Virus record (IMG/VR): IMGVR_UViG_3300048818_000054
Span: 20,451-84,450 of that record
Strand: one strand, 5' to 3'
DNA: 64,000 nt
Source: a virus
Shown here: positions 46,078 to 64,000 of the stretch, in pieces
Layout of the letters: every line of letters begins with the position of its first letter
Position numbering within the stretch: the first letter of the stretch is position 1
Translations under genes and position numbers: made by a program
Notes under the pieces: generated by a model
Database searches by the model: none
Told to the model about the DNA's origin: nothing
What the model saw: only the letters and a program-made list of their open reading frames with translations

Positions 46078-48054
46078 TCAAATTCGATCTATGGGTGCTC
46101 CGTCGTCATTCACGTTCTGAATGTCCGATATCGGGTTGCTTGAGTCAGGCTTTATGTCGTCATAGTCCTGCGAAAGCTGGCCTGCCGCGCTCTGCCTCTT
46201 GCCCTTCTTCTTGGGAGCATTCGGGGAACGGTCATCGTCGGACGGGTCTTCTTTCTCAACATTCTTGTCCTTGAAGTCATCAACGATCTTCTGAGCCTTG
46301 TCATAATCGCCAGCGGTGAAAGCGTCGTCAGCCTCCTTGAACATGGACGGGTCGGTTATCTCGAAGCGTGCCCACATGAGCGTGTCAATCTCGCTTTCGC
46401 TCCAATCTTTCGCTGTTTCAGCATCCGTTGAAATGGCGTCATCTGGTGAAGTCTCCGCGATGGCGAGCGCTGCATCGTAATCGCCGTCGTCATAGGCGGA
46501 CTGCGCGCTGTCCTTCAAATCCCCGTCGTCAAGGTCTTCAATCGCGCCTTGCAGAGCTTCGGTCTTCGCGTCATCGTCCCACCCGGCTAGGTCTTCGGCG
46601 TCAACTTCATCGCCTTCGACACCCAATGCAGCAACTCCATCCAGCAAATCACTAACAAGGTCTTCTCCCTCTTCGGAAAGCTCACCGGGCTCTTTCGTGC
46701 TGGCCGGAACCAACATGCCACGGCAGTTCGGGTGATAGGGCGGCGAGCCGTAGCCGGCCGCCTGTAGTTCATCTGGCGTCATGCCGGCGAGGTCTTCGAG
46801 GTCAGGCCATGGTGCCATGGACGCCAACTCGTCGGGGTCGGACGTGCCCAACGTTTGCATGAGCCGGCCGCTCTGCTCGGCAACGTCGAACTGCATCCCG
46901 TCCATGTACTGGCAAACGTCGCACGTCTTGTCGTCAAGAATTTCGCTGACCTCATAGGTGGTTGAGCCTTCGTCCGACGCCTGAGACAGGAAGCCCAGCG
47001 ATATGAGACGCGAGGTAGTGAGACCGGCCTGCGTGTCGATTGGCACGGTCCCGCCGCTGGCTACAGCCGCATTAAGCTGGTCTGCAAGCGTCTCAAGTGC
47101 CGCCTCGGCCTTAATCAAGTCCTCTTCACGCACCTGATAAGTGCCGTTGTAATTGCGGACCATGCGGACAGGTAGCAATCGATATAGGGTCGCAATGTCG
47201 CGGTTGCGGAGCGCCTGTAAGGCGTACTCTTTGTCTGACTGGTCACGGATGCGATCGATGGCGTCGTGCCACGCGAGCACTTCGGCCGAGGTCATGCCTT
47301 CGTTGTCTTCGTCCTCGGCCTTCAGCACGTCCTCTTCAAGGTCATCCTGCCAGTCTGTATTGATCTCTTGGAAAATCTCAGGGCCGAATTCGAGCGGGCC
47401 GTCATAAGCCTTGATGGCGGACAGGTCCAAGTCTTCAGGCGCAGCATAGGTGATGGTGACGTGGGACTGGTAAGGTACGAAGCTATGATGGCAGCCCAGC
47501 ACGCGCAGATACGAATGCCGCCTAATCAGGTCCGCGTTTTGGAACGTCATCACGACCGCATCCCCGAACTGCTCAATGGTTCGGTTTTCCGTGTCATAGG
47601 CGAACAGGTGACCTGAGCCGCCCTCGCCCATGTTCTCCCAATCCACCGGGTCTTTCGAATAGACGACGGTGACGTGCATGTCATCGGCGGGGAGCGTGCT
47701 CGTAAATCCAGCCTCTTTCGCCCAAGCAAGCAGAGGTTCTGTGTTCACAAGGTCTCGACGGATGTAAAGCGTCTTGTCAAATTTCTTGAGCTTGCGCTTC
47801 CGCTTGTAGGGGGCCTGCTTCTGCTCGGGCTCGGCAAGGCCGCCCGTCACCGCTAGCGACACCGAGCTTATGTCATCTTTTTTGAGTTCTTTTTTTTTAG
47901 CTTTGGGCATGTCGGGAAGGCGCGCGAGCGCGGCCGATGAAGTGTCTTCGGTTTTGTCGAGCAGACGACGGTATTCAACGGCCGCAGCCGTCTGAACCGG
48001 GTCATCCTTCAGTTTTGACAAAATCGCCGCGATTTCCACGTTTCCATACCTCAC
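46078..48054 (-). CDS. fusion: Acb1-like 2H phosphoesterase + MuF/gp7-like head morphogenesis domain
   Basis: TLYIRR...MHVTVVYS...SHVTITY...FGPEIF (two HxT motifs); LDDKTCDVC...PPYHPNCRG (MuF). Confidence 0.85.
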   Translation of the reverse strand: MRYGNVEIAAILSKLKDDPVQTAAAVEYRRLLDKTEDTSSAALARLPDMPKAKKKELKKDDISSVSLAVTGGLAEPEQKQAPYKRKRKLKKFDKTLYIRRDLVNTEPLLAWAKEAGFTSTLPADDMHVTVVYSKDPVDWENMGEGGSGHLFAYDTENRTIEQFGDAVVMTFQNADLIRRHSYLRVLGCHHSFVPYQSHVTITYAAPEDLDLSAIKAYDGPLEFGPEIFQEINTDWQDDLEEDVLKAEDEDNEGMTSAEVLAWHDAIDRIRDQSDKEYALQALRNRDIATLYRLLPVRMVRNYNGTYQVREEDLIKAEAALETLADQLNAAVASGGTVPIDTQAGLTTSRLISLGFLSQASDEGSTTYEVSEILDDKTCDVCQYMDGMQFDVAEQSGRLMQTLGTSDPDELASMAPWPDLEDLAGMTPDELQAAGYGSPPYHPNCRGMLVPASTKEPGELSEEGEDLVSDLLDGVAALGVEGDEVDAEDLAGWDDDAKTEALQGAIEDLDDGDLKDSAQSAYDDGDYDAALAIAETSPDDAISTDAETAKDWSESEIDTLMWARFEITDPSMFKEADDAFTAGDYDKAQKIVDDFKDKNVEKEDPSDDDRSPNAPKKKGKRQSAAGQLSQDYDDIKPDSSNPISDIQNVNDDGAPIDRI

Positions 48055-53327: not shown

Positions 53328-55721
53328 TCAGGCGGCGAGCTTCAGTTTCTTCAGGCTTGCGAGGTTCGGGCCGGCCTCCGCGTCCACAGTAAACTGTAGC
53401 TGCGGCTTCCAACCTACCTCATGAAGCGGTAGGTTTGCCATAATCTGAGCGGCCCGTCCAGCCCATAATTCGAAGTTGTCTTCCGGGACGTACGCGATCA
53501 AGGCGTCATGGATCATGGCGACGACCTCAATCTCCCCGTTCGGATAGGCTTGGTCGATAAGTGCGATGGCCCAGACCATCATATCGGTCAAGGTGCTCTG
53601 GACAGGGGCGTTGATGCCTTGGCGCTCGGCTTTGGCTCGTATCTCGCGATCCCATGATCGGATATGGGGCAAATGCCTGATACGGCCCAGCGGGCTTCTT
53701 ACGGCCTCGTGGGCGTTGACGATCGCCTTCTGGTCGTTATGGAACTCTAGCAGGCCGGGGTAAAGCTCAAAAAAGGCGTCCCGCATCTGCGTCGCCTCGG
53801 CAAGGGACAGGCGGATACCGTAGTTCGCCCAGCTATACGCCTGAAACCCTCCTGCCGACATGCCATAAATCAGGCCAAAATTTGCCGGCTTGGCATTGCC
53901 ACGGTGCTTGTCGAAAAGATCGGCTAAGGCTTTGTCTTCGTTGTCCTTCCACGTTAAGAATTCATGCAATGGCGTCTTGCTCAGCTTGGCCCCGGTGACG
54001 GCGTGAAGGTCCAGCCCGTCAAGGTAAGATTGCAGCATGGTCGGCTCGGGCGCGAGACACGCGACGATCTTCAACTCGCCTTGGCTATAGTCGATCGACA
54101 CGATGACCTTGCCGGGGGGAGCCGGATAGCAGGCGCGTATCTTCTTGGCCCACTTCGTCTTCTTCGGCATGATCTGGATTGCGGGCTCTTTGGCGCTCAA
54201 CCGCCCCGTCGTGGTGCCGCTCTCGTCGTCTTCGTCATCGTTCAGCCCGCCGTGGAAAAGCATATAGGTGGGGTGAAGCCTACCGTCCGGACGAAGGTGC
54301 TTGAGGAAACCCTCTACAAAGGTCGATAGCGTCTTGCCGGCCGTGTCCATGGTGGTTAGGGCGGTCACCATCGCAACGGCAGCGGGCACGTCTGCGAACT
54401 GGCGCAAATGGGACTTCGCCATCGATGGCACCTTCGCGCCGTTCTTGTCCGGCTTGGGCGTGAACTCTCGCGGCTTGAGGTTGAGGCCGTCCGTGGTAAA
54501 AAAGTAATCCTTGAGGATCGACGGTAGGAGCGGGCTCTTGCCATCCTCGATCTGATCGACAATGCGATCACGGAATTTCGTCAGCATCTTTTGCGGCAAC
54601 AGTTCCATCGCCGTCTTCTGCGCCTCGGCAATCACGACTCGAAGCTCGGAAGCCAGTTCCTTCGATTTTTCAACGTCAACGCACACCCCGCGCCGCTCGA
54701 CCTTTTCAAAGGCGCGCGCGCCGGGGTGAAGGATGGTGATATAGAACCTAGTCAGAGCGGCGTCGTCTGCTAGGTTATCTCGCAGCACGTCAGCGACCTG
54801 TTGCGCGGCGTCAGTATCTCCCCCGGCGTAACCCAAAAGCTTGTCGGTCGGCACGTCCTCCATGTGGGCTTTGTCGGTCGTCTTGTTGAACACGTCGTCA
54901 TAACCGCCCATGTCCGTATAAACCTTGGCGTGCAAGTTCAGGCTGTTGGACCGGTTTTCGTCAAGCAGCGTCCCGACCAAGAGATTGTCGAATTTGAAGT
55001 TCGTACAGGCGATCCCCCACTTCTCAAAAATCCAGTTCAAATCGAATTTCAGGTTCGACCCGCGAAGCTTCACCATGGGGCTCGTAAGCAGAAATTCTAT
55101 ATGACCGAGCGAAGGCGCCTTGATACGCGGCGTCCCCGGCTGCTTCCCAAGATAGAGCAAGTGAGCGGTGCGGGGCTTGGCTGTAAAACTGATCGAAAGA
55201 ATGTCTTTGTCGGGATACCATGGGTAAAGCCCCATCGTCTCCAAATCCATCGAAACGTCTACAGGTTTGTGCGTCCCGGCATGAGTGTGAATTACATAGT
55301 CCACAACTTCTTGAAGATCGGCTGCCCACTTGTAATCTCCTAGGCTAGGTTCAAACGAGCAGGTACGGAGAAACCGGACGGCAAGGCGCACGTCCCATTC
55401 GATCAATTCTCGCGTCGAAAAAACAGTCTGCGTCAAGCCGGGGTCGAACGTCACAAGGTAAGTCCCGCCGCCCGGCGAGGCTATCGGCACCCCGCGCATT
55501 GACGTGACGGTCTTGTTCTTGGGGACCAAGCCGGCGAGGCGCAGCACGTTCAGGCAATGGTTACCGCATACAAGCACAACTTCAAGCGTTGCCGGATTTG
55601 GCAGGCTCTCGTCAAACTCTATGAAGTGGTGAGGGGGAACGTCAGGCCGGTAGTTCTTTAGAATAGGCCCGAAAACTTTCTGCACCGTGGGCGATGCAGC
55701 CGAAGTCCAAATCTTTAGCAA
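53328..55721 (-). CDS. DNA polymerase family A with 3'-5' exonuclease and degenerate UDG-like N-terminal domain
   Basis: MDLET, YAGGD, TGRLSAKEPAIQ, IDYSQGELK, AKPANFGLIYG, IHDAL. Confidence 0.95.
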   Translation of the reverse strand: MLKIWTSAASPTVQKVFGPILKNYRPDVPPHHFIEFDESLPNPATLEVVLVCGNHCLNVLRLAGLVPKNKTVTSMRGVPIASPGGGTYLVTFDPGLTQTVFSTRELIEWDVRLAVRFLRTCSFEPSLGDYKWAADLQEVVDYVIHTHAGTHKPVDVSMDLETMGLYPWYPDKDILSISFTAKPRTAHLLYLGKQPGTPRIKAPSLGHIEFLLTSPMVKLRGSNLKFDLNWIFEKWGIACTNFKFDNLLVGTLLDENRSNSLNLHAKVYTDMGGYDDVFNKTTDKAHMEDVPTDKLLGYAGGDTDAAQQVADVLRDNLADDAALTRFYITILHPGARAFEKVERRGVCVDVEKSKELASELRVVIAEAQKTAMELLPQKMLTKFRDRIVDQIEDGKSPLLPSILKDYFFTTDGLNLKPREFTPKPDKNGAKVPSMAKSHLRQFADVPAAVAMVTALTTMDTAGKTLSTFVEGFLKHLRPDGRLHPTYMLFHGGLNDDEDDESGTTTGRLSAKEPAIQIMPKKTKWAKKIRACYPAPPGKVIVSIDYSQGELKIVACLAPEPTMLQSYLDGLDLHAVTGAKLSKTPLHEFLTWKDNEDKALADLFDKHRGNAKPANFGLIYGMSAGGFQAYSWANYGIRLSLAEATQMRDAFFELYPGLLEFHNDQKAIVNAHEAVRSPLGRIRHLPHIRSWDREIRAKAERQGINAPVQSTLTDMMVWAIALIDQAYPNGEIEVVAMIHDALIAYVPEDNFELWAGRAAQIMANLPLHEVGWKPQLQFTVDAEAGPNLASLKKLKLAA

Positions 55722-55741: not shown

Positions 55742-56143
55742 TCAAGCTGCCAGAGCCCACACGTCATCGCGGCCCTTATAGAAGCTGCGTGAGACGCCTT
55801 TGTCAAGCGCGGCGAGCGCTACTTCGAGACTTTCTGGACGATGCTTTTCCAACCAACCGTTGAACTGCTCCATCTTCGCCAGATTAAGCGCATGGATCGA
55901 AATTTCTACTCCGTTCACCGCGACAAGAAACCCAAGGTTGCCGAGCACGCTCACGATAACCATCGTGCAGCCTTTCGCGACGTGGGAACTCTTGACCTTC
56001 ATGGTGAGGCGGACAGGAAGGTCGCCAAGCACGACCTCTCGCGAAACCTCGCCCGTTACCATGCCGGTGTTGCGATTGTGAAACACCTTCATGGCGAGCG
56101 CATCCGCGATGGCGTATATCGAATGCTGGTTCACAACTTCCAT
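55742..56143 (-). CDS. hypothetical protein
   Basis: ORF with plausible RBS. Confidence 0.55.
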   Translation of the reverse strand: MEVVNQHSIYAIADALAMKVFHNRNTGMVTGEVSREVVLGDLPVRLTMKVKSSHVAKGCTMVIVSVLGNLGFLVAVNGVEISIHALNLAKMEQFNGWLEKHRPESLEVALAALDKGVSRSFYKGRDDVWALAA

Positions 56144-56337
56144 TTGATTGATCCCTTGTAGTTGGCGGCTGACCATTTACCGAGCGTCGCGCCAAGATAG
56201 GTCACGACAAAATCAGCCGTAACGCCCACTTGTGCGGTGCAGAGCAGCTTGACCGGTTCGTCCGTTAGGGCAGGGAAGGGCGACGGCGTTTCCAGCCTAT
56301 CGCCAACTTTGAGGCTATTGAAAAACGAAACGTCCAA
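56131..56337 (-). CDS. hypothetical protein
   Basis: 68-aa ORF with GGAG RBS. Confidence 0.55.
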   Translation of the reverse strand: MDVSFFNSLKVGDRLETPSPFPALTDEPVKLLCTAQVGVTADFVVTYLGATLGKWSAANYKGSIKWKL

Positions 56338-56346
56338 AGGGGGCTC

Positions 56347-57246
56347 CTACTGCTTGAGGGCGATCTTGGCAAAGTCGGGGAACGGCGTGTCAATCGCGAT
56401 GCCGAGGCCCATAAGGATTGCGCCGAGCGTCTTGCGCGCGAGCGGTATATCGTTGGCGATGCCCAAATGAAGGCTGGCGTAATCTGGCTTGAAGGTATCG
56501 AACCCGACGCCGATAATTGCGTTCTTGTGGGCGAGCAGCTTCGGACCCTCGATCCGGATTGAAAGCTGAGCGCCGTTATACTTGACCGCGACGTTCACGC
56601 CCTCGCCTCTCGCAACCACGAAATATCGCGAGCCGGCCGAAGTGCCATGGACAGGCTGGTAAAGGTGCTCCGCGCTCTTGAGATTAATCGTTGGTCCGTT
56701 CATTATGTCGCCTTCCTTAGTCGCATATTTCATCGGGGCGGTGCTGGTCGCTTGGAACGTCTTGCTGGTCCCGAGCGGCATCGGCTTTTTGAGGAACGAT
56801 AAGTCCTGAGCGTCGAATACTTCGGCTGCATCGTCGGCCGTCAAATCGATGGGCTGAGACTTCAATTTCGGCAAGGTGCTGAGAATGCTTCCGGGGGCAG
56901 CCGGCTTAGCGAACAGTTCGTGAGCCTTTTCCATCTGCGCCTTGGCAACCGTATGGGCCTTGATCGCATAGGAGATTGACTCTTTCACGTAAGCGGCTAG
57001 AGACGTGTTCTTGACTATGGGAAGCTTATTCTTGGTATCCGCTTGCAGATGGGGCGATATTTCCGCTGCATGGACCAAGAGGCCGTTCGTGCGGTCGCAA
57101 AACCACAAGCCGCTCGGCTTCCAAAAGACAGCCAGACCGACCGCCCACATTTGCTTCAAATCTTTGTCGCTACCCGTGAGCCACTGGATATCGTTCCAAG
57201 CGGACTTTAGTTTCGTGGGAGCGTCTTTCTTAATGAACAAAGCCAC
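56347..57246 (-). CDS. hypothetical protein (own promoter, hairpin RBS)
   Basis: GTG start 7 nt after AGGAG. Confidence 0.75.
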   Translation of the reverse strand: MALFIKKDAPTKLKSAWNDIQWLTGSDKDLKQMWAVGLAVFWKPSGLWFCDRTNGLLVHAAEISPHLQADTKNKLPIVKNTSLAAYVKESISYAIKAHTVAKAQMEKAHELFAKPAAPGSILSTLPKLKSQPIDLTADDAAEVFDAQDLSFLKKPMPLGTSKTFQATSTAPMKYATKEGDIMNGPTINLKSAEHLYQPVHGTSAGSRYFVVARGEGVNVAVKYNGAQLSIRIEGPKLLAHKNAIIGVGFDTFKPDYASLHLGIANDIPLARKTLGAILMGLGIAIDTPFPDFAKIALKQ

Positions 57247-57247
57247 C

Positions 57248-57264
57248 AAAAACCTCCTGTTTCT
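57248..57264 (-). promoter_or_regulatory. hairpin RBS (CsrB-like loop)
   Basis: AGAAAC-AGGAG-GTTTTT (one G-U pair). Confidence 0.65.
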
Positions 57265-57337: not shown

Positions 57338-58168
57338 TTAAGCCCCCCAAATATTGCTCTTGGACGTGACCGGGCAATAGCTGTCGATCACCCCATGTGA
57401 CGTGTCATAGCTGGTCTTGGACCCTGCGGAGTAGTTGTTGCCGGTGTATGGGGTAACTTCATTCTTCCCGGACTTGGCGGTCGTCTTGTAGCCCTTGTGC
57501 TTCAACTTCTTGCAACCAAACTCCTTGACCAGAAAATCGACTTGCGACGTGCTCTCTACCGCCGTCTTGCAGTAGTTCGTGCGGACATACTCGATAGCGT
57601 CGCTCTCTCCGTAGCGGGTGACCAGCGCGGCAAGGAACATACCGGTCCGCCCGTGTCCGCCCATGCAACCGCAATGGACTTTTCGGCCGGCGTCGATCTG
57701 CTTTTTGGTCCAGTCCACCAGCTTGTTGAATTCTTCCGGCTTGTCCGGGATGCCCATGTCGGGAATGCGGAACAGGACTTCATCGCCCTTCTTCCAAGGC
57801 CAATTGCGTTGCGTGAACCGCATGTCATAGGCGAAGCCGATATACACGTCGGCGTCTTGGACGATCGGCTCGGAGCACGACCCGCCATAGATCACCTTGT
57901 CGGTCCCCGGCAACGGCATAGCCGGATGCTTATGGTAGCAGCGGGAAAAGATGCCGGCGTAATTGTGAGACTGATACTTTGTGCCGGTGCCGCTGACGCC
58001 GTGATGCTTGGCAGACGCCAGTTCGAATTTCGAATAACGCTGTTCCGCGCCAGAGCGCCACGGTAGCACGCCTTGCGCGCTGTAAGCCGGGTCGTGGCTG
58101 TCTTGCGGACCTAGGCCACCGTCACGGTGCTTTTCAAATTCGTCCCATGTATCCAGATACTTTGCCAT
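57338..58168 (-). CDS. Cys-based (PTP/dual-specificity-like) phosphatase with N-terminal extension
   Basis: VHCGCMGGHGRTG (CX5R); TAATG-coupled start. Confidence 0.85.
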   Translation of the reverse strand: MAKYLDTWDEFEKHRDGGLGPQDSHDPAYSAQGVLPWRSGAEQRYSKFELASAKHHGVSGTGTKYQSHNYAGIFSRCYHKHPAMPLPGTDKVIYGGSCSEPIVQDADVYIGFAYDMRFTQRNWPWKKGDEVLFRIPDMGIPDKPEEFNKLVDWTKKQIDAGRKVHCGCMGGHGRTGMFLAALVTRYGESDAIEYVRTNYCKTAVESTSQVDFLVKEFGCKKLKHKGYKTTAKSGKNEVTPYTGNNYSAGSKTSYDTSHGVIDSYCPVTSKSNIWGA

Positions 58169-59256
58169 TATGCCGCTTCCTTTCGAATGATCTTCTTGAC
58201 GTAAACCGGACCGGCCTTGCCGGGCATAACCAGCAAGTGTTCCTTGATGAAATTCTTCTTGTCGAGCGCGACCTGCGCGGCGAAAGCTTCGGCCTTGGCC
58301 TTGGCGGCGGCGATGGCGGCCTTTGTTTCCGGCGTCATGCCATAGATTAAGGTCTGTTTCTTTATTTCGTTCGGATATTTTTGGACTGAGCCTTTCGCTT
58401 CCACCGTGTTCCAATCGACATAGGGGCCGATCGCGCCGGGGAAGTAATCGCGAACCCAAGCGGCCATCCCGGTCATTTCCGGGTTGACGTAGTGAGCCAT
58501 TTCCGGGTCGTGAAGGATGGTCTCAATCATCTGTCCGGAGCGCTGCAAATCGAGCAGCCGAACAATGTAACTTCCGTTATGGCCGAACAGCTTACCAGGC
58601 TTGTTAAAGATGGGAGCGCAATTGTGCGAGAGGGTCCAAATGGTATCGAGCATGATCTCTGCCGTAAACTCGCCGTTCACAAAACGGCCCATGCAATCGG
58701 CAATGTTGCCCCACTTAGGACCGCCGTAAGCGCCGCCCCAGATTGAATGATAGTAAGACCAGCGAAGCGCGTCGCATAGCGTCCCGATCGAACAATCCAG
58801 CGTGTTCTTGAGCAGGCGGTTGATAATGTCTTCCTCGCCGCCAGAGGCGGTAAGGAAGTTGGCGACCGGCGCTCCGAATTTTTCGGTTAGCTTCGGTCCA
58901 TCGGTCTGCTTCGAATGACTGTGGCGGGCCTCGCGAACGCATATGGAAAGCAAGTAATAAAACGAGCGGCGGGCCTTCTCGCCCATCATCGCATGGTAGC
59001 GCTGAACGAAGTCCAATTCGGCGGCCGGCAGCGGCTCCAACGGATGGCGCTTGGCCGAGATTAACGCCATGCCATGGTTCATGCCGTAAAACCAAAGGGC
59101 TTCACGTTCAGGGCTGGCAAGAGGCGTCTTGTCTTGAGAATGAAATTGCTTGTAGGCGGGGATCACCGAGGAAACGGGAACTGCCGACATATCGGCCGGT
59201 CGCGTCAAAGCGCGTGAATTGTGATAGGCCAAAGTGTTTTGTGGGTCTGTGAGCAC
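58168..59256 (-). CDS. uncharacterised helical protein in the PPDK/phosphatase cluster
   Basis: 362 aa; own promoter; motifs CVREARH, YGGPKW..IA, HNCAPIFNK. Confidence 0.75.
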   Translation of the reverse strand: MLTDPQNTLAYHNSRALTRPADMSAVPVSSVIPAYKQFHSQDKTPLASPEREALWFYGMNHGMALISAKRHPLEPLPAAELDFVQRYHAMMGEKARRSFYYLLSICVREARHSHSKQTDGPKLTEKFGAPVANFLTASGGEEDIINRLLKNTLDCSIGTLCDALRWSYYHSIWGGAYGGPKWGNIADCMGRFVNGEFTAEIMLDTIWTLSHNCAPIFNKPGKLFGHNGSYIVRLLDLQRSGQMIETILHDPEMAHYVNPEMTGMAAWVRDYFPGAIGPYVDWNTVEAKGSVQKYPNEIKKQTLIYGMTPETKAAIAAAKAKAEAFAAQVALDKKNFIKEHLLVMPGKAGPVYVKKIIRKEAA

Positions 59257-59337: not shown

Positions 59338-59835
59338 TTAAGAAAGTCCTAAAAACCATCCGAAGCGCTTGCGCCACGCCGCCCAGAAAAACCAACGCTG
59401 GATTTCTTCAACGGGGAAGGCGGCTACGTAATCGATCTGCTCTTCTGTCTCGCACGACCGGTCATCGTAATGCCAGCGGACGTAGCCGACCGGATTTCCA
59501 ATCCCGGCGACCTTGGCTAGGAGCGCAAGGAACAGACCGGTGCGGCCGATGCCGCCCATGCAGCCGACGTAAACTTTCTTGCCGTCCAGCATGGCTCGGA
59601 GCGCTTTCTTGAGGACCGAGACGACGGCTGACGTGTCCTGCGGAACCTGAAAGTCCTTGATTGGCAACCACGCATGGACGCCTTCGAACGGGACGCGCTC
59701 GGAGCGAACGCAAACGTTGAAGGTTCCGCCGACCGGGCGCGCGTCAAACGGGCCACCGTCGATATCGAAACGATACCAACCGCCGTCCCATTGAAAATAG
59801 AGAGGCATTGAATTTGTCAGTCTCTTATGAAGCAC
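59338..59835 (-). CDS. Cys-based (PTP/dual-specificity-like) phosphatase
   Basis: VYVGCMGGIGRTG; LPIKDFQVP; ET.EQ. Confidence 0.85.
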   Translation of the reverse strand: MLHKRLTNSMPLYFQWDGGWYRFDIDGGPFDARPVGGTFNVCVRSERVPFEGVHAWLPIKDFQVPQDTSAVVSVLKKALRAMLDGKKVYVGCMGGIGRTGLFLALLAKVAGIGNPVGYVRWHYDDRSCETEEQIDYVAAFPVEEIQRWFFWAAWRKRFGWFLGLS

Positions 59836-59857: not shown

Positions 59858-60070
59858 TCACTTATAGCACATTTTGACAGCATCGCAAATGATATCGCCG
59901 TCAATGGTTAAGAGCCAATCCCTGAACCGCCAGTTCCCATATTCGCTTGTGACTGGCGAGGCGCGCCGTCCCATGGCGGCGAGGGTACGGGCGAACATGC
60001 CGCGCATCCCATCTTCCTTGGCGTGAGCGATGGCGTTATCCGACACGCGGTACACCCTGAACCTTGTCAT
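59858..60070 (-). CDS. hypothetical protein
   Basis: 70-aa ORF overlapping the CsrA-like gene end. Confidence 0.5.
   Translation of the reverse strand: MTRFRVYRVSDNAIAHAKEDGMRGMFARTLAAMGRRASPVTSEYGNWRFRDWLLTIDGDIICDAVKMCYK
59861..59888 (-). promoter_or_regulatory. sigma70-like promoter
   Basis: TTGCGA-16-TATAAG with TG extended -10. Confidence 0.5.
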
Positions 60071-60341
60071 AGCCGTTTTCCTCGCGCCATCTGTCGCCCT
60101 TTAAGATACGCATGGATTTGGGCGCGTCAATAACGACTCTCGCAATGCCGTGTTGCGGGCGGTCCCCGGACGAAATGAACACGTCAGGCATAATCTCTGT
60201 CGCCTCTTCCTCTCCGATCTTGAACATCTGGTCGCCGGCCGCGAGGGTGAAGGTGAAGCGTCCGGAGCGATACGCCACGAAAACCTGCTTGTCGGCAACA
60301 TAGAAATCGTCGCCTTCTCTGAGGCTGAGGGTGAGGGGCAT
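60036..60341 (-). CDS. CsrA/RsmA-like RNA-binding protein (with insertion)
   Basis: LTLSLREGDDFYVAD ~ CsrA LILTRRVGETLMIGD; ARVVIDAPKSMRILKGD ~ VRIGVNAPKEVSVHREE. Confidence 0.55.
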   Translation of the reverse strand: MPLTLSLREGDDFYVADKQVFVAYRSGRFTFTLAAGDQMFKIGEEEATEIMPDVFISSGDRPQHGIARVVIDAPKSMRILKGDRWREENGYDKVQGVPRVG

Positions 60342-60345
60342 GAGG

Positions 60346-62325
60346 CTAGGCTCCTAAGACAGAGAACACGGCATATTCAGCGGGCATAGCCTTGGGCGCT
60401 GCCGTATGGCCGTCGTGGTCGATAATCAGACCCGCCAGAGCCTTACCACGGATTTTGATCGCGTTCTGTAAAACCTTGACGAACGGGTCGGTCTTGACAG
60501 TCAGGTTGCCGAAAGTCTCGCGTAGCGTGTCGTCAGCTTCGTTCAGGAAAGCCTTGGGCGGGCGAACGTCAAGGGTGACGTGCATACGCATCGGCAGAGC
60601 CGCGAGGCCGTCCAACACCGCCGTCATGACCTCTTCCGAACCCCACCACTGAGAGGCCATGATCCGATGGGGCTTGGCCGCTCCCATGTCGCACGGGACA
60701 GGCGGGCAAGTGCCGAGCATTTCGAAAGACCAATCGATCACGTTCTGGACCGCCTTGTCATCCGAGGCGTCGATCACCGGAACCTCTTGATTGATCCAAA
60801 CCCGGCCGGTCGAACCGTCGATCGTAACGGTTTTCCACTTGCCGGCGTTGTCCAGCATATGCGGCCCGACGCCAACCACGCAAGTCTTGTCCATTGCGCG
60901 GGCGACCACGGCGGCGTGACTGGTAGCACCGCCCATGGCGGTTAGAATGCCCTTGGCCTTCGCCATCCCGGCGATATCGTTAGGGCTGGTTTCGTGCGTC
61001 ACCAGAATGCAATCGAACTTGGCGGCGACCGCATCGGCCGAGCTAAACACCGGCTGCGCGGTCACGACGCCGGGGCAACCGGGGATGCCGGTGAAATCTG
61101 GCTTGACCTTGTAATCGGGATCAATCTGCGGGCGGCGCAGCGTCTTGAACTGTTCGCTCGAAAGTTTCTTGAAAGCGTCAAGGCGGGTCCACTCGCCAGC
61201 GCCCACCTTGTCTACCGCGATGCGGAAGGCCGCGCGCGCCGAGCGCTTTCCAGAGCGGCTTTGCAGGATATAAAGCTTGCCCTGCTGAACCGTAAACTCA
61301 ATGTCCACCATGTCATTATAGATGGTTTCCAGCTTCGAGCAGAGCGCCAAAAGCTGGGCGTGAACGTCGGGCCAAGTAAAGTCGAGGCCGTTCGTGTTAT
61401 AATTCCACTTGCCGATCATGCCTTCAACGGGATGCGGGGTCCGGATGCCGGCCACCACGTCTTCACCTTGGGCGTTCTCCAAAAACTCTCCGAACATGCC
61501 GGGCTCGCCAGTTGACGGGTTGCGAGTGAAAAGGACGCCGGTTCCGCTCGACTTGCCCATGTTGCCGAACACCATCGCCTGTATGGTAACGGCGGTGCCC
61601 ATGTCATCGGGGATGCTATTCAGCTTGCGATACTCAATGGCGCGGGGGCTCTCCCAGCTATCGAACACGGCCAAGATGGCGGCAGCTAACTGCGCCCCCA
61701 AAGTATTGGGGAATTCCTTCTGCGTCGCGGCCTGAAACTTCTGTGTCATCAAAAAGCTGACCGCCTTCAAAGCGCCAACGGTCAGGTCGGTATCGAGCAC
61801 CGCTTTATCGAGCACCTTCATTGCGGCCAACTCGCCGTCAAACACGGCCATCGGAACACCGAACGCCGTTGCGCCGAGCATCGTTATCAAGCGACGGTAG
61901 CTGTCGAACGCGGCGCGCTCGCCAATCTTATCCCCCCAGCTATCGACGTTGCTTGTCGTGAGGCCGACGTTCAAAATCGTGTCCATCATGCCGGGCATAG
62001 AAACTGGCGCGCCAGAGCGGACCGAAACGAGAGGCATGAAGCCGAACTTCTTTTCGAGGGTCGCCATGTGCTCCATGGTCTTTGCGACCAAACCATCAAT
62101 GAAAGACACGTCAGCCGTCGTCACGCCGGCCTTCTTCATTACGCGGAACTTATTGCAAACGTCCGTCGTGATGGTGAAACCAGGAGGAACCGGCATTCCA
62201 TCATTGACCATCCTCACAAGGCCGGCACCCTTGCCGCCAAGGACGCGCTTCGTTTCCGAAGCGTCCGACGATTGCCACTGGCAACCGGTGTCCGAAAAAT
62301 CATACATGGGAAGGTAGTCGGTCAT
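60346..62325 (-). CDS. PPDK-like dikinase: ATP-grasp + phospho-His swivel domains, lacking the PEP/pyruvate barrel
   Basis: LGGKGAGL, PVPPGFTITT, LVSVRSGAPVSMPGMMDTILNVG, NAQGEDVVAG, GGATSHAAVVAR; only 659 aa. Confidence 0.9.
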   Translation of the reverse strand: MTDYLPMYDFSDTGCQWQSSDASETKRVLGGKGAGLVRMVNDGMPVPPGFTITTDVCNKFRVMKKAGVTTADVSFIDGLVAKTMEHMATLEKKFGFMPLVSVRSGAPVSMPGMMDTILNVGLTTSNVDSWGDKIGERAAFDSYRRLITMLGATAFGVPMAVFDGELAAMKVLDKAVLDTDLTVGALKAVSFLMTQKFQAATQKEFPNTLGAQLAAAILAVFDSWESPRAIEYRKLNSIPDDMGTAVTIQAMVFGNMGKSSGTGVLFTRNPSTGEPGMFGEFLENAQGEDVVAGIRTPHPVEGMIGKWNYNTNGLDFTWPDVHAQLLALCSKLETIYNDMVDIEFTVQQGKLYILQSRSGKRSARAAFRIAVDKVGAGEWTRLDAFKKLSSEQFKTLRRPQIDPDYKVKPDFTGIPGCPGVVTAQPVFSSADAVAAKFDCILVTHETSPNDIAGMAKAKGILTAMGGATSHAAVVARAMDKTCVVGVGPHMLDNAGKWKTVTIDGSTGRVWINQEVPVIDASDDKAVQNVIDWSFEMLGTCPPVPCDMGAAKPHRIMASQWWGSEEVMTAVLDGLAALPMRMHVTLDVRPPKAFLNEADDTLRETFGNLTVKTDPFVKVLQNAIKIRGKALAGLIIDHDGHTAAPKAMPAEYAVFSVLGA

Positions 62326-63229: not shown

Positions 63230-63398
63230 TTTCCGTCTCCAATTGCCCGCCGTTCTGATTGGCGAGTGTTTCAAAAGTGGGGTCTTCGAACGCTGGCGTA
63301 ACGACGTAGCCGTTGTCCGTATAGGGGACTTTGCGCTTGTCTAGCGCAGCACAAAACACGGCTTGCCCCGTGTCATTGAAAAATCGAAAATCACTCAT
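62895..63398 (-). CDS. possible small protein coupled to TerL (only the first ~55 codons look genuine)
   Basis: ATG overlaps the TerL stop; the remainder overlaps the next gene out of frame. Confidence 0.3.
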   Translation of the reverse strand: MSDFRFFNDTGQAVFCAALDKRKVPYTDNGYVVTPAFEDPTFETLANQNGGQLETENERSGVGTSGLSGAGLEDIGNVSARAHADIGYRGMPEDRLYDQGGRIAPFVCRIGQTVSKSGHVQRRTSRGQSGGDGSFHDARPSSGRAEARPVRVRHVPPAPSGRGPLGR

Positions 63399-64000
63399 CT
63401 TCCGACCGCATGGTGACTAAGCCCTTTTGCGTGCGGAGGCGGTCGATATACGGCATAGCCATCAACTCCTCCTTCTCGCGCGCAGCGATATCGTTCTTGC
63501 CGCGCGGCTCAGTCAAGAACGTCGGAATTCGGTTGCCCGGTATCCCGTGCTTGGTCCAGCTATCGCGCATCCTCATGAGGCCGAGCACAACGCCGGCCAT
63601 GGCGTCTGCAACGTCCTTCGATCCTTTCGGAGGATGGTCGATCTTCTGCTTCTTTACGTCAAGTTCCAAGCTCACCATTTCCTTCTGGGCCTTGGCATGG
63701 ACCGGCGCGAGTATGCGACCATCATAAAACGCCTGCTTAGTGAGGTCATATCCGAACGTGTCGCTGTCCACCGTAGCCTTGCCGCAAATGAAACCTTCGC
63801 GCTGCAATATCTGCCGGCTATCGTCAGACTGGTACTGATCGAACGTCACCCATTTGATGTTGATTTTCAACGTGTCACGGACGAAATAAATCAAGCTACG
63901 AATGTCCGCGAACACGATCTCCCCGCCCTTTGGCGGCGGCACTTCAAGGACAAAATCAAAACGGATGATCGGCAAGTCTTCCGCGTAATCCCCACGCTTC
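63391..64000 (-). CDS. terL: terminase large subunit, C-terminal nuclease domain (5' part outside the window)
   Basis: VTFDQYQS, KIDHPPKGSKDVADAMAGVV. Confidence 0.9.
   Translation of the reverse strand, partial: KRGDYAEDLPIIRFDFVLEVPPPKGGEIVFADIRSLIYFVRDTLKINIKWVTFDQYQSDDSRQILQREGFICGKATVDSDTFGYDLTKQAFYDGRILAPVHAKAQKEMVSLELDVKKQKIDHPPKGSKDVADAMAGVVLGLMRMRDSWTKHGIPGNRIPTFLTEPRGKNDIAAREKEELMAMPYIDRLRTQKGLVTMRSEDE

Follow-up and report, generated by a model that had tools for sequence, protein, structure and literature searches.

The analysed window, a 64,000-nucleotide stretch of viral DNA, encodes on its minus strand a 659-residue dikinase (P0001, 60346..62325) that is apparently derived from PPDK and is barrel-less. 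Its nucleotide-binding ATP-grasp domain (about residues 1-395, 61141..62325; Pfam PPDK_N, E 2e-46) is followed by a swivel phospho-His domain (about residues 396-517, 60775..61140; PEP-utilizers mobile domain at residues 438-507, E 4e-23), within which lies the codon of the putative catalytic His470 (60916-60918), and then by a linker helix and an orphan alpha/beta tail (residues 518-659, 60349..60774). Alignment to PPDK shows that all eight ATP/Pi-site residues compared in the nucleotide-binding domain (K22, R92, G101, R135, D321, E323, Q335 and R337 of PPDK) are kept, as K32, R103, G112, R145, D341, E343, Q355 and R357, and that T468-S469-H470 matches T453/H455. The swivel motif of PPDK, G-G-x-T-S-H-A-A-V-V-A-R, is represented by GGATSHAAVVAR (residues 465-476), which contains His470. 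With both an ATP-grasp and a mobile phospho-His domain, the protein falls within the broad superfamily of swivel-His dikinases and PEP-utilising enzymes. The first-pass annotation had described the nucleotide-binding domain and the phospho-His motif as intact and had pointed to IDGSTG and VIDWS motifs; the Pfam matches and the retained catalytic residues bear this out, and the motifs are located at residues 501-510 (TIDGSTGRVW) and 528-533 (NVIDWS). The short dikinase is not a truncation artefact, since over 100 proteins in the databases, 640-750 residues long, share its two-domain architecture and carry a tail homologous to its own. Within this family the swivel domain is the best-conserved part (mean pairwise identity 0.69), and the ATP-grasp domain has a mean pairwise identity of 0.59.

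All of the neighbouring genes described here are likewise on the minus strand. Beginning 4 nt past the dikinase stop codon is ORF101 (60036..60341), a small CsrA-like protein with homologues at the same position in 46 of 85 loci; Pfam CsrA is matched at E<=0.5 by nine of ten members of the family; E is below 0.01 for seven of these, two pass the gathering score, and the copy in the window itself has no Pfam CsrA match. ORF70 (59858..60070), a small conserved protein, has homologues at the same position in 22 loci. PTP1 (59338..59835, 165 residues) is a CX5R cysteine phosphatase of the dual-specificity type (Pfam Tc-R-P, PTP-SAK and Y_phosphatase), in which D61, C92, R98 and T99 are invariant across 36 homologues and whose closest solved relatives are small DSP/PTPs (SsoPTP, DUSP23 and a Thermococcus PTP). 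Three PTP1 relatives lie on contigs that are short or unrelated. Next are ORF362 (58168..59256, phrog_20946), an orphan enzyme-like protein and the predicted partner of the dikinase, and PTP2 (57338..58168, 276 residues), a second CX5R phosphatase (Pfam Tc-R-P and PTP-SAK). The ATG of PTP2 at 58168 overlaps the ORF362 stop codon and is preceded by GAAAGGAAG; the mechanically called reading frame (373 residues) is over-extended, homology to 55 relatives beginning near its residue 170. ORF300 (56347..57249, phrog_25950) has a variable N-terminus and a conserved C-terminal domain of ~110 residues; homologues occupy the same position in 53 loci, conservation is restricted to residues ~185-297, PDB and Pfam give no match, and NCBIfam and the ESM Atlas likewise yielded no function. 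ORF144 (55742..56176) is a small protein kept in closer relatives (homologues in 13 loci), and DNA polymerase A (53328..55721; Pfam DNA_pol_A and 3'-5' exonuclease) forms the downstream boundary of the module. A scan for promoters and terminators returned nothing above shuffled expectation, and operon boundaries are therefore undefined.

The window has the gene order that defines the module (phrog_18609, phrog_20946 and phrog_17568), upstream of PolA. Among 80 viral loci from IMG/VR, the short dikinase, wherever enough downstream DNA is available, is always followed by PTP1, an ORF362-like protein (~360 residues), PTP2, an ORF300-like protein (~290 residues) and PolA, whereas none of 11 long, true PPDKs in IMG/VR has any of these neighbours. 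The order is repeated at over 50 loci and in five named phages; it holds in named phages that infect Rhizobium, Rhodobacter, Vibrio and Stenotrophomonas, and also in a prophage of Hyphomicrobium. Situated between terminase and DNA polymerase, the block belongs to the core of one large siphophage lineage with genomes of 80-100 kb; as this single lineage also keeps the order of terminase, polymerase and portal, the synteny could reflect descent instead of functional coupling. An independent pairing of dikinase and phosphatase in cellular genomes was considered and rejected: of 29 loci recovered with the PTP1 profile, the five that contain a dikinase and other module genes seem to be prophages or phage contigs from this one lineage, and in another 23 no dikinase occurs within 8 kb. 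One of the 29 is a 1.7-kb fragment with only the phosphatase and the start of an ORF362-like gene. A distant homologue of the ORF362 core adjoins a PTP-like gene in contigs of Actinomycetota, with no dikinase within 8 kb, which indicates that ORF362-type proteins do not always need a dikinase. Bacillus phage G encodes a fragment-like dikinase homologue of 365 residues among unrelated genes. In the literature on the phage dikinase family, only "PPDK" annotations were found, with no described function.

The PEP/pyruvate barrel is evidently missing. The first-pass annotation had read the protein as lacking it, and the domain scan agrees: PEP-utilizers_C is absent from the dikinase even at E<=1. 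A barrel encoded elsewhere in the genome, a contingency raised in that annotation, was also sought, and PF02896 was found in none of the six frames of the complete 99,945-bp phage genome, although all 14 control genomes matched. Homology of the dikinase to solved PPDKs ends at about residue 540, its pairwise alignment with a true PPDK ends at residue 533, and the PEP-site residues R561, R617, E745, D769 and C831 of PPDK have no counterpart in that alignment. The dikinase scores 524.3 bits against the PPDK equivalog TIGR01828 (cut-off 843.45), covering only model positions 10-523 of 865; 415.3 bits against NF004531 (cut-off 456), its second-best NCBIfam match; and 46.6 bits, through the His domain only, against the rifampin phosphotransferase model NF041857 (cut-off 999). 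Sequence comparison thus confirms that the dikinase keeps only what corresponds to the ATP-driven, phosphate-carrying half of PPDK. Because there is no barrel in protein or genome, no counterpart of the PEP/pyruvate ligands and a score under both PPDK equivalog cut-offs, the earlier proposal that this is not a metabolic PPDK is strongly supported, and so is the view that the phage gene labelled PPDK in the literature is not a glycolytic helper.

In place of the barrel stands a tail that is divergent, as had been noted at first, and somewhat longer than the ~110 residues then given, nearer 125-140, a difference judged small enough. The 142-residue segment is modelled with confidence (pLDDT 92.6) as a small alpha/beta domain with only 3-4 strands in about 110 residues, and it gives only weak matches to fragments of the barrel. 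When the profile of the tail was compared with those of true PPDKs (hhalign), nothing matched; homology of the tail to the PPDK barrel at the sequence level was accordingly rejected, and only by eye do its first strand and its C-terminal VP..YAAF helix look similar to PPDK. The tail is the fastest-evolving part of the dikinase (identity 0.35, versus 0.59-0.69 for the other domains), can no longer be recognised in two sublineages, those of the Vibrio phages and DLP5, and has invariant positions that are almost all hydrophobic, with few polar ones. No other part is so poorly conserved, and the predicted interface with ORF362 does not include the tail, which is therefore probably left over from the barrel (the first beta/alpha units and the last helix) rather than a new substrate domain. 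It is nevertheless retained and confidently modelled as folded, and must have some role beyond the model of a split dikinase set out below.

ORF362 has no sequence match in Pfam, NCBIfam or PDB, and its ESM Atlas model is poor and returned no function; the idea that it is a diverged PEP barrel was rejected, hhalign against PPDK being empty. The family has 21 invariant columns, including R108, E109, R111, H112, D204, H211, N212, K219, D236 and Q238, which form an enzyme-like set (Arg, His, Asp, Asn, Lys). Structure prediction of a complex between residues 395-659 of the dikinase and residues 23-362 of ORF362 gave an ipSAE of 0.70 (0.68-0.73 in three runs) versus 0.00 for the best of three controls, ipSAE being the model's own confidence. 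Among solved complexes 58 of 80 attain this ipSAE mark, as against 2 of 110 mismatched pairs, a calibration that is only roughly valid here because unpaired in-house alignments were used. The runs have at least 61% of contacts in common, with a partner pLDDT of at least 74. In the predicted interface the His loop of the dikinase (464-478) faces ORF362 residues 57-72, 184-212, 238-243 and 287-289, among them the invariants Y57, E200, D204, L209, N212, Q238, R239, G241 and G289 (enrichment p=0.005). The separate acceptor subunit that the first-pass annotation had put forward as a possibility has thereby gained support in silico, in the form of a His470 loop docked on the conserved face of ORF362, and the modelled complex suggests that phosphate is probably passed to its target via this neighbouring orphan protein.

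Several characterized systems invite comparison. PPDK itself (EC 2.7.9.1; TIGR01828; C. symbiosum 1KBL/1DIK, Flaveria 5JVN) has a PEP/pyruvate TIM barrel of ~340 residues where the phage dikinase has a variable alpha/beta region, a putative remnant, of 110-140 residues, and its genomic partners are different. The split or re-targeted swivel-His dikinases considered were phenylphosphate synthase, HpeHI (PDB 9goj), rifampin phosphotransferase (5HV1) and glucan-water dikinase. Known split dikinases are cut between the ATP-grasp domain and the part bearing the His and the substrate site; in the phage dikinase, by contrast, ATP-grasp and His domains are fused and the acceptor part would be a separate protein. 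Rifampin phosphotransferase is 12% identical to the dikinase in Foldseek alignments and 24-26% identical in VIA-align alignments, and its domains are ordered ATP-grasp, substrate-binding, C-terminal His, whereas the His domain of the phage protein is followed by the tail. The mobile His domain of PTS Enzyme I is homologous to that of the dikinase (E 1e-7 to 1e-9) and its His loop docks on a separate protein, HPr, for phosphate handover, resembling the docking predicted for dikinase and ORF362; however, Enzyme I is charged from PEP via a barrel and the phage enzyme is predicted to be charged from ATP, and ORF362 is unrelated to HPr.

The closest precedent is VadK of M. tuberculosis (Rv1127c; NF004531/PRK05878), a PPDK-derived protein that has kept the ATP-binding and phospho-His domains without a working pyruvate domain, undergoes ATP- and Mg-dependent autophosphorylation on its catalytic His, and works via protein partners (Pascoe et al., EMBO Rep 2026, PMC13400623). 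Its catalytic His is equivalent to His470, and the two proteins are alike in having ATP-binding and phospho-His domains without a pyruvate domain. VadK, however, has about 490 residues and no tail, compared with 659 residues and an extra conserved tail of 140 residues in the phage protein, and it is an actinobacterial protein that adjoins methylcitrate-cycle genes without the CX5R phosphatases or the ORF362-like neighbour that accompany the phage dikinase.

The reading that we favour, with a confidence slightly better than even, is that of a PPDK-derived split dikinase that has lost its barrel, with ORF362 as the acceptor site and the flanking phosphatases reversing or editing the modification. 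Judging from the conserved catalytic residues and the biochemistry of PPDK and VadK, the ATP-grasp domain would pyrophosphorylate His470 of the swivel from ATP, and the gamma-phosphate would then pass to Pi (or water), leaving His470~P. The swivel would next dock on the conserved face of ORF362, the product of a separate gene, instead of on a barrel in cis, as the controlled structure prediction indicates, and ORF362 would give the acceptor site, either catalysing transfer to a further substrate or becoming phosphorylated itself. Reversal or editing of the phosphorylation by the two CX5R phosphatases is suggested by the fixed synteny only.

That the gene might instead encode a genuine PPDK, serving as an auxiliary metabolic gene with its short C-terminal region as a minimal barrel, follows the paper on Vibrio phage J26, in which a four-stranded PEP-binding 'TIM barrel' was proposed for that region of the J26 homologue. 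This is extremely improbable, given the lack of PEP-utilizers_C signal in dikinase or genome, the empty profile-profile comparison with true PPDKs, the five PEP-site residues without counterpart, the presence of just 3-4 strands in a poorly conserved tail of about 110 residues with few polar invariants, and a score far under the TIGR01828 cut-off; the J26 paper itself limits the overlap with 1GGO to residues 1-527. A regulatory histidine kinase of the VadK type would autophosphorylate and act directly on host or phage proteins, such as metabolic enzymes or RNA polymerase, with the variable tail recognising the target, the CX5R phosphatases stripping phosphates from proteins, and ORF362 not being an acceptor. 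The autophosphorylation of VadK, a truncated PPDK, on His422 and its binding to methylcitrate-cycle enzymes (PMC13400623) accord with such a role, as do the rank of the short PPDK-like model NF004531 as second-best NCBIfam match, the protein Tyr/dual-specificity phosphatases that are the closest solved relatives of PTP1, and a fast-evolving tail that would suit host-specific recognition. We consider it unlikely, because the dikinase falls under the NF004531 cut-off and has a domain absent from VadK, few polar residues of the tail are conserved, and the complex prediction, with clean controls, brings the His loop against ORF362 residues that are conserved.

Two further proposals concern the substrate. 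The module may modify phage DNA or nucleotides, with phosphoryl groups placed on a base, sugar or nucleotide precursor and intermediates trimmed by the phosphatases, which bears on the final substrate and is compatible with ORF362 as partner. The block always adjoins DNA polymerase A, and glucan-water dikinase, which phosphorylates a polymer, is a precedent for such activity in this enzyme class. The DNA of the related phage DLP3 resists 15 restriction enzymes (PMC7326821), but its arabinosylated 5-hydroxycytosine has been assigned to another cluster, comprising a thymidylate-synthase homologue, glycosyltransferases, sugar-nucleotide enzymes and a dNMP kinase, in a paper in which the word 'dikinase' is absent (PMC13326640). 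As the present phage keeps the module without any thymidylate-synthase homologue, and as its conservation is just as strong in Vibrio phages, modification of DNA or nucleotides is rather improbable. A specific role in thymidine or cytidine hypermodification was rejected, since the genome is without a thymidylate-synthase homologue and the DLP3 pathway consists of other genes. Alternatively, a host glycan (glycogen, capsule or cell wall) may be phosphorylated and dephosphorylated in a cycle like that of plants, in which SEX4 and LSF2, glucan phosphatases of the dual-specificity type, act together with glucan-water dikinase. The module combines the same classes of enzyme, a swivel-His dikinase and two DSP-type CX5R phosphatases, and one metagenomic protein with three PTP1-like repeats adjoins a CBM_2 carbohydrate-binding protein. 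This analogy, based on the plant system and one anecdotal neighbour, is very unlikely to hold: no module protein gives a signal for a carbohydrate-binding module or glycoside hydrolase, and the domain order of the dikinase is that of PPDK, not GWD.

If the favoured reading of a split dikinase is extended to the whole block, the module might constitute a hitherto undescribed three-part phosphoryl-transfer system that is a core function for this large lineage of phages, in which an ATP-charged His docks in trans on an acceptor enzyme of orphan fold, the ORF362 family, that phosphorylates a new class of target, with two dedicated cysteine phosphatases completing the cycle; this fuller proposal is tentative, and we hold it to be possible rather than probable. 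The gene is called a glycolytic auxiliary metabolic gene in dozens of published phage genomes, as well as in at least one paper devoted to it, a label that the evidence indicates to be wrong. Should the split-dikinase model be true, the entry point would be the docking of His470 on ORF362 at R239, D204, E200 and N212, and a phosphorylation chemistry as conserved as polymerase and portal would be present in a lineage that infects Vibrio, Stenotrophomonas, Rhizobium, Rhodobacter and relatives, several phages of which are under development for phage therapy or aquaculture. The model would likewise add to the recent finding made with VadK, that PPDK engines have been repeatedly re-targeted. If the three-part system is real, these phages would possess a machine for reversible phosphorylation that is unrelated to Ser/Thr/Tyr kinases or two-component systems.

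The virus record is complete (99,945 bp, the window being its bases 20451-84450) and encodes, at 60346-62325 on the minus strand, a 659-aa protein resembling pyruvate phosphate dikinase (PPDK), in whose translation the motifs quoted in the first-pass annotation are found. This protein, hereafter the dikinase, had been described there as a PPDK-like enzyme without the pyruvate/PEP domain, and this is confirmed: its Pfam matches are the ATP-grasp domain of PPDK (PF01326, E 2e-46) and, at residues 438-507, the mobile phospho-His domain (PF00391, E 4e-23), with no third domain even at E<=1. The PEP/pyruvate barrel (PF02896) is absent from the whole genome in a six-frame search that was positive in 14 of 14 control genomes; thus, PPDK cannot be rebuilt from a separate barrel gene, a possibility also raised in the annotation. 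The profile of the dikinase family matches solved PPDKs (E 1e-170 to 1e-180) over positions 4-543 only, and a pairwise alignment of the dikinase with a true PPDK of 875 aa goes no further than residue 533. All eight nucleotide/Pi-site residues of PPDK (K22, R92, G101, R135, D321, E323, Q335 and R337) are retained (as K32, R103, G112, R145, D341, E343, Q355 and R357, respectively), as is the T453/H455 motif (T468 and H470, the latter being the catalytic His of the swivel domain); the ATP-driven engine of the dikinase is that of PPDK. None of the five pyruvate/PEP-site residues (R561, R617, E745, D769 and C831) has a counterpart in the pairwise alignment.

Modelled alone, the tail of the dikinase (residues 518-659, pLDDT 92.6) consists of a linker helix and a small, three- or four-stranded alpha/beta domain. 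A PDB sequence search with the tail gave no match at E<=10, and profile-profile comparison revealed no similarity to true PPDKs. Superposition of the whole chain on PPDK 1kbl aligns 617 of the 659 dikinase residues, and because it extends to residue 870, the tail takes the position of the barrel, overlaying pieces of it. By eye, the first strand of the tail (RIMAS) resembles the first strand of the PPDK barrel, and its C-terminal VP..YAAF..L helix resembles the last helix. The tail is probably what an internal deletion has left of the barrel, and it cannot function as a PEP site. It is the fastest-evolving part of the family (mean pairwise identity 0.35; ATP-grasp domain 0.59, His domain 0.69), its conserved positions are nearly all hydrophobic, and it is unrecognisable in the Vibrio and DLP5 sublineages.

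The build of PF01326 and PF00391 alone recurs in more than 100 database proteins of 640-750 aa, and relatives in records of Vibrio, Stenotrophomonas, Rhizobium and Rhodobacter phages are labelled 'pyruvate phosphate dikinase'. The relative in Vibrio phage J26 has been assigned a four-stranded 'TIM barrel' PEP-binding domain, into which PEP was docked (PMC12038007), but that region carries no PEP-site residues in the dikinase family. With no barrel in protein or genome, no profile similarity in the tail, no counterpart of any PEP-site residue, and 524 bits against the PPDK equivalog TIGR01828 (NCBIfam curated cut-off 843), a true PPDK is essentially excluded; the score against the short PPDK-like model NF004531 (415 bits) is likewise under its cut-off of 456. 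The J26 paper also names two further genes, 'membrane protein' (position of ORF362, 58168..59256, minus strand) and 'pyruvate decarboxylase' (position of ORF300, 56347..57249, minus strand) (PMC12038007). Neither label found support when the window's families of ORF362 and ORF300 were searched against Pfam, NCBIfam and PDB sequences.

The ORFs of 80 viral loci were compared with those of the window. The short forms (636-750 aa) with enough downstream DNA are all followed, in this order, by a CX5R phosphatase, an ORF362-like gene, a second CX5R phosphatase, an ORF300-like gene and DNA polymerase A, whereas not one of these neighbours accompanies the 11 long forms (875-908 aa), true PPDKs from mis-binned contigs. 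Gene order is identical in RHph_TM16, RcZahn, J26, SIO-2, DLP3 and a Hyphomicrobium prophage. Synteny alone cannot prove functional coupling, because this is one phage lineage in which the order of terminase, polymerase and portal is likewise kept. The ORF at 63391-63999, cut by the end of the window, matches the terminase genes (620-700 aa) that lie upstream of the dikinase in related loci, and so encodes the C-terminal portion of the large terminase. This places the module between terminase and DNA polymerase/portal, with all these genes on the same strand. In the Hyphomicrobium prophage, the gene after portal (L086:20837-21974, counterpart of window ~46078-48054) has a Pfam Acb1 match, in agreement with the annotation's Acb1-like anti-CBASS domain fused to the MuF head protein of the lineage.

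Both phosphatases, PTP1 (59338..59835) and PTP2 (57338..58168), on the minus strand, have an intact catalytic set, with D61, C92, R98 and T99 of PTP1 invariant in 36 homologues. The mechanically called PTP2 ORF (57338-58459, 373 aa) is too long; translation probably begins at the ATG at 58168 (276 aa), which follows GAAAGGAAG and overlaps the stop codon of ORF362, an arrangement suggesting that the two genes are translationally coupled. A metagenome contig (L087:3478-7048) encodes, outside phage context, a 527-aa protein of three tandem PTP1-like domains adjoining a CBM_2 carbohydrate-binding protein. In the ORF300 family the N-terminus is variable, and a C-terminal domain of ~110 aa, without assigned function, is the sole conserved part; in three members the variable part includes a ribosomal L7/L12 C-terminal-like domain. 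The small gene that follows the dikinase at a distance of 4 nt (60036-60341) is CsrA-like in most relatives: of ten family members, nine align with the C-terminal half of Pfam CsrA at E<=0.5, including seven at E<0.01 and two above the gathering score, and the window copy has no Pfam CsrA match.

ORF362 (phrog_20946) has no match in Pfam, NCBIfam or PDB searches and about 150 homologues, none annotated; its invariant polar residues (R108, E109, R111, H112, D204, H211, N212, K219, D236 and Q238) form an enzyme-like set. The annotation's suggestion of a separate acceptor subunit is supported, for ORF362, by complex prediction (dikinase 395-659 with ORF362 23-362, analyst-supplied alignments, three controls), which gave an ipSAE, a model confidence and not a measurement, of 0.70 (runs 0.68-0.73) versus 0.00 for the best control. 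In the tool's calibration, only rough for supplied alignments, 58 of 80 solved complexes reached this mark, as did 2 of 110 mismatched pairs. At least 61% of contacts are common to the runs, with partner pLDDT at least 74. On the dikinase side the predicted interface comprises the catalytic His loop (464-470, 472-478), 415-418 and 445-455, the face that visits two active sites in PPDK, and excludes the tail. On the ORF362 side (57-72, 184-212, 238-243, 287-289) it includes nine conserved positions (Y57, E200, D204, L209, N212, Q238, R239, G241 and G289; enrichment, Fisher p=0.005). The model pairs His470 with R239 and D204; a phosphoryl-transfer site would require an Arg and acidic residues opposite the phospho-His.

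The closest functional precedent is VadK (Rv1127c), a truncated PPDK of Mycobacterium tuberculosis (EMBO Rep 2026), and a VadK-like regulatory kinase working directly on proteins is plausible, the nearest solved relatives of both phosphatases being small dual-specificity/Tyr phosphatases. A role in DNA or nucleotide modification is weakened: a separate gene cluster accounts for the hypermodification of DLP3, according to a paper whose text does not contain 'dikinase' (PMC13326640), and the phage keeps the module though its genome has no thymidylate-synthase homologue. A glycan cycle like that of glucan-water dikinase and SEX4 is no more than an analogy, the one neighbour in its favour, the CBM_2 protein beside the PTP1-like repeats of L087, being anecdotal. 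Phenylphosphate synthase, HpeHI, rifampin phosphotransferase and glucan-water dikinase illustrate the principle of split or re-targeted dikinases; no description was found in the literature of a fused ATP-grasp and His protein with a separately encoded acceptor between two CX5R phosphatases.

A distant homologue of the ORF362 core (GG..W...D...L.HN.G..FNK; 242 aa, hhalign probability 97%, E 5e-11) is encoded immediately upstream of a PTP1/PTP2-like gene on an Actinomycetota MAG contig (L117:6943-8287; also L113:4018-4970), with a DNA polymerase III beta gene nearby. No PPDK-like gene is found within 8 kb, and therefore the ORF362-type/phosphatase pair may occur independently of the dikinase. 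With ORF362 as the acceptor, ATP-dependent formation of His470~P, as in the biochemistry of PPDK and VadK, would be followed by delivery of the phosphate at the conserved face predicted to dock, where ORF362 may serve either as a catalytic acceptor subunit or as a phospho-carrier.
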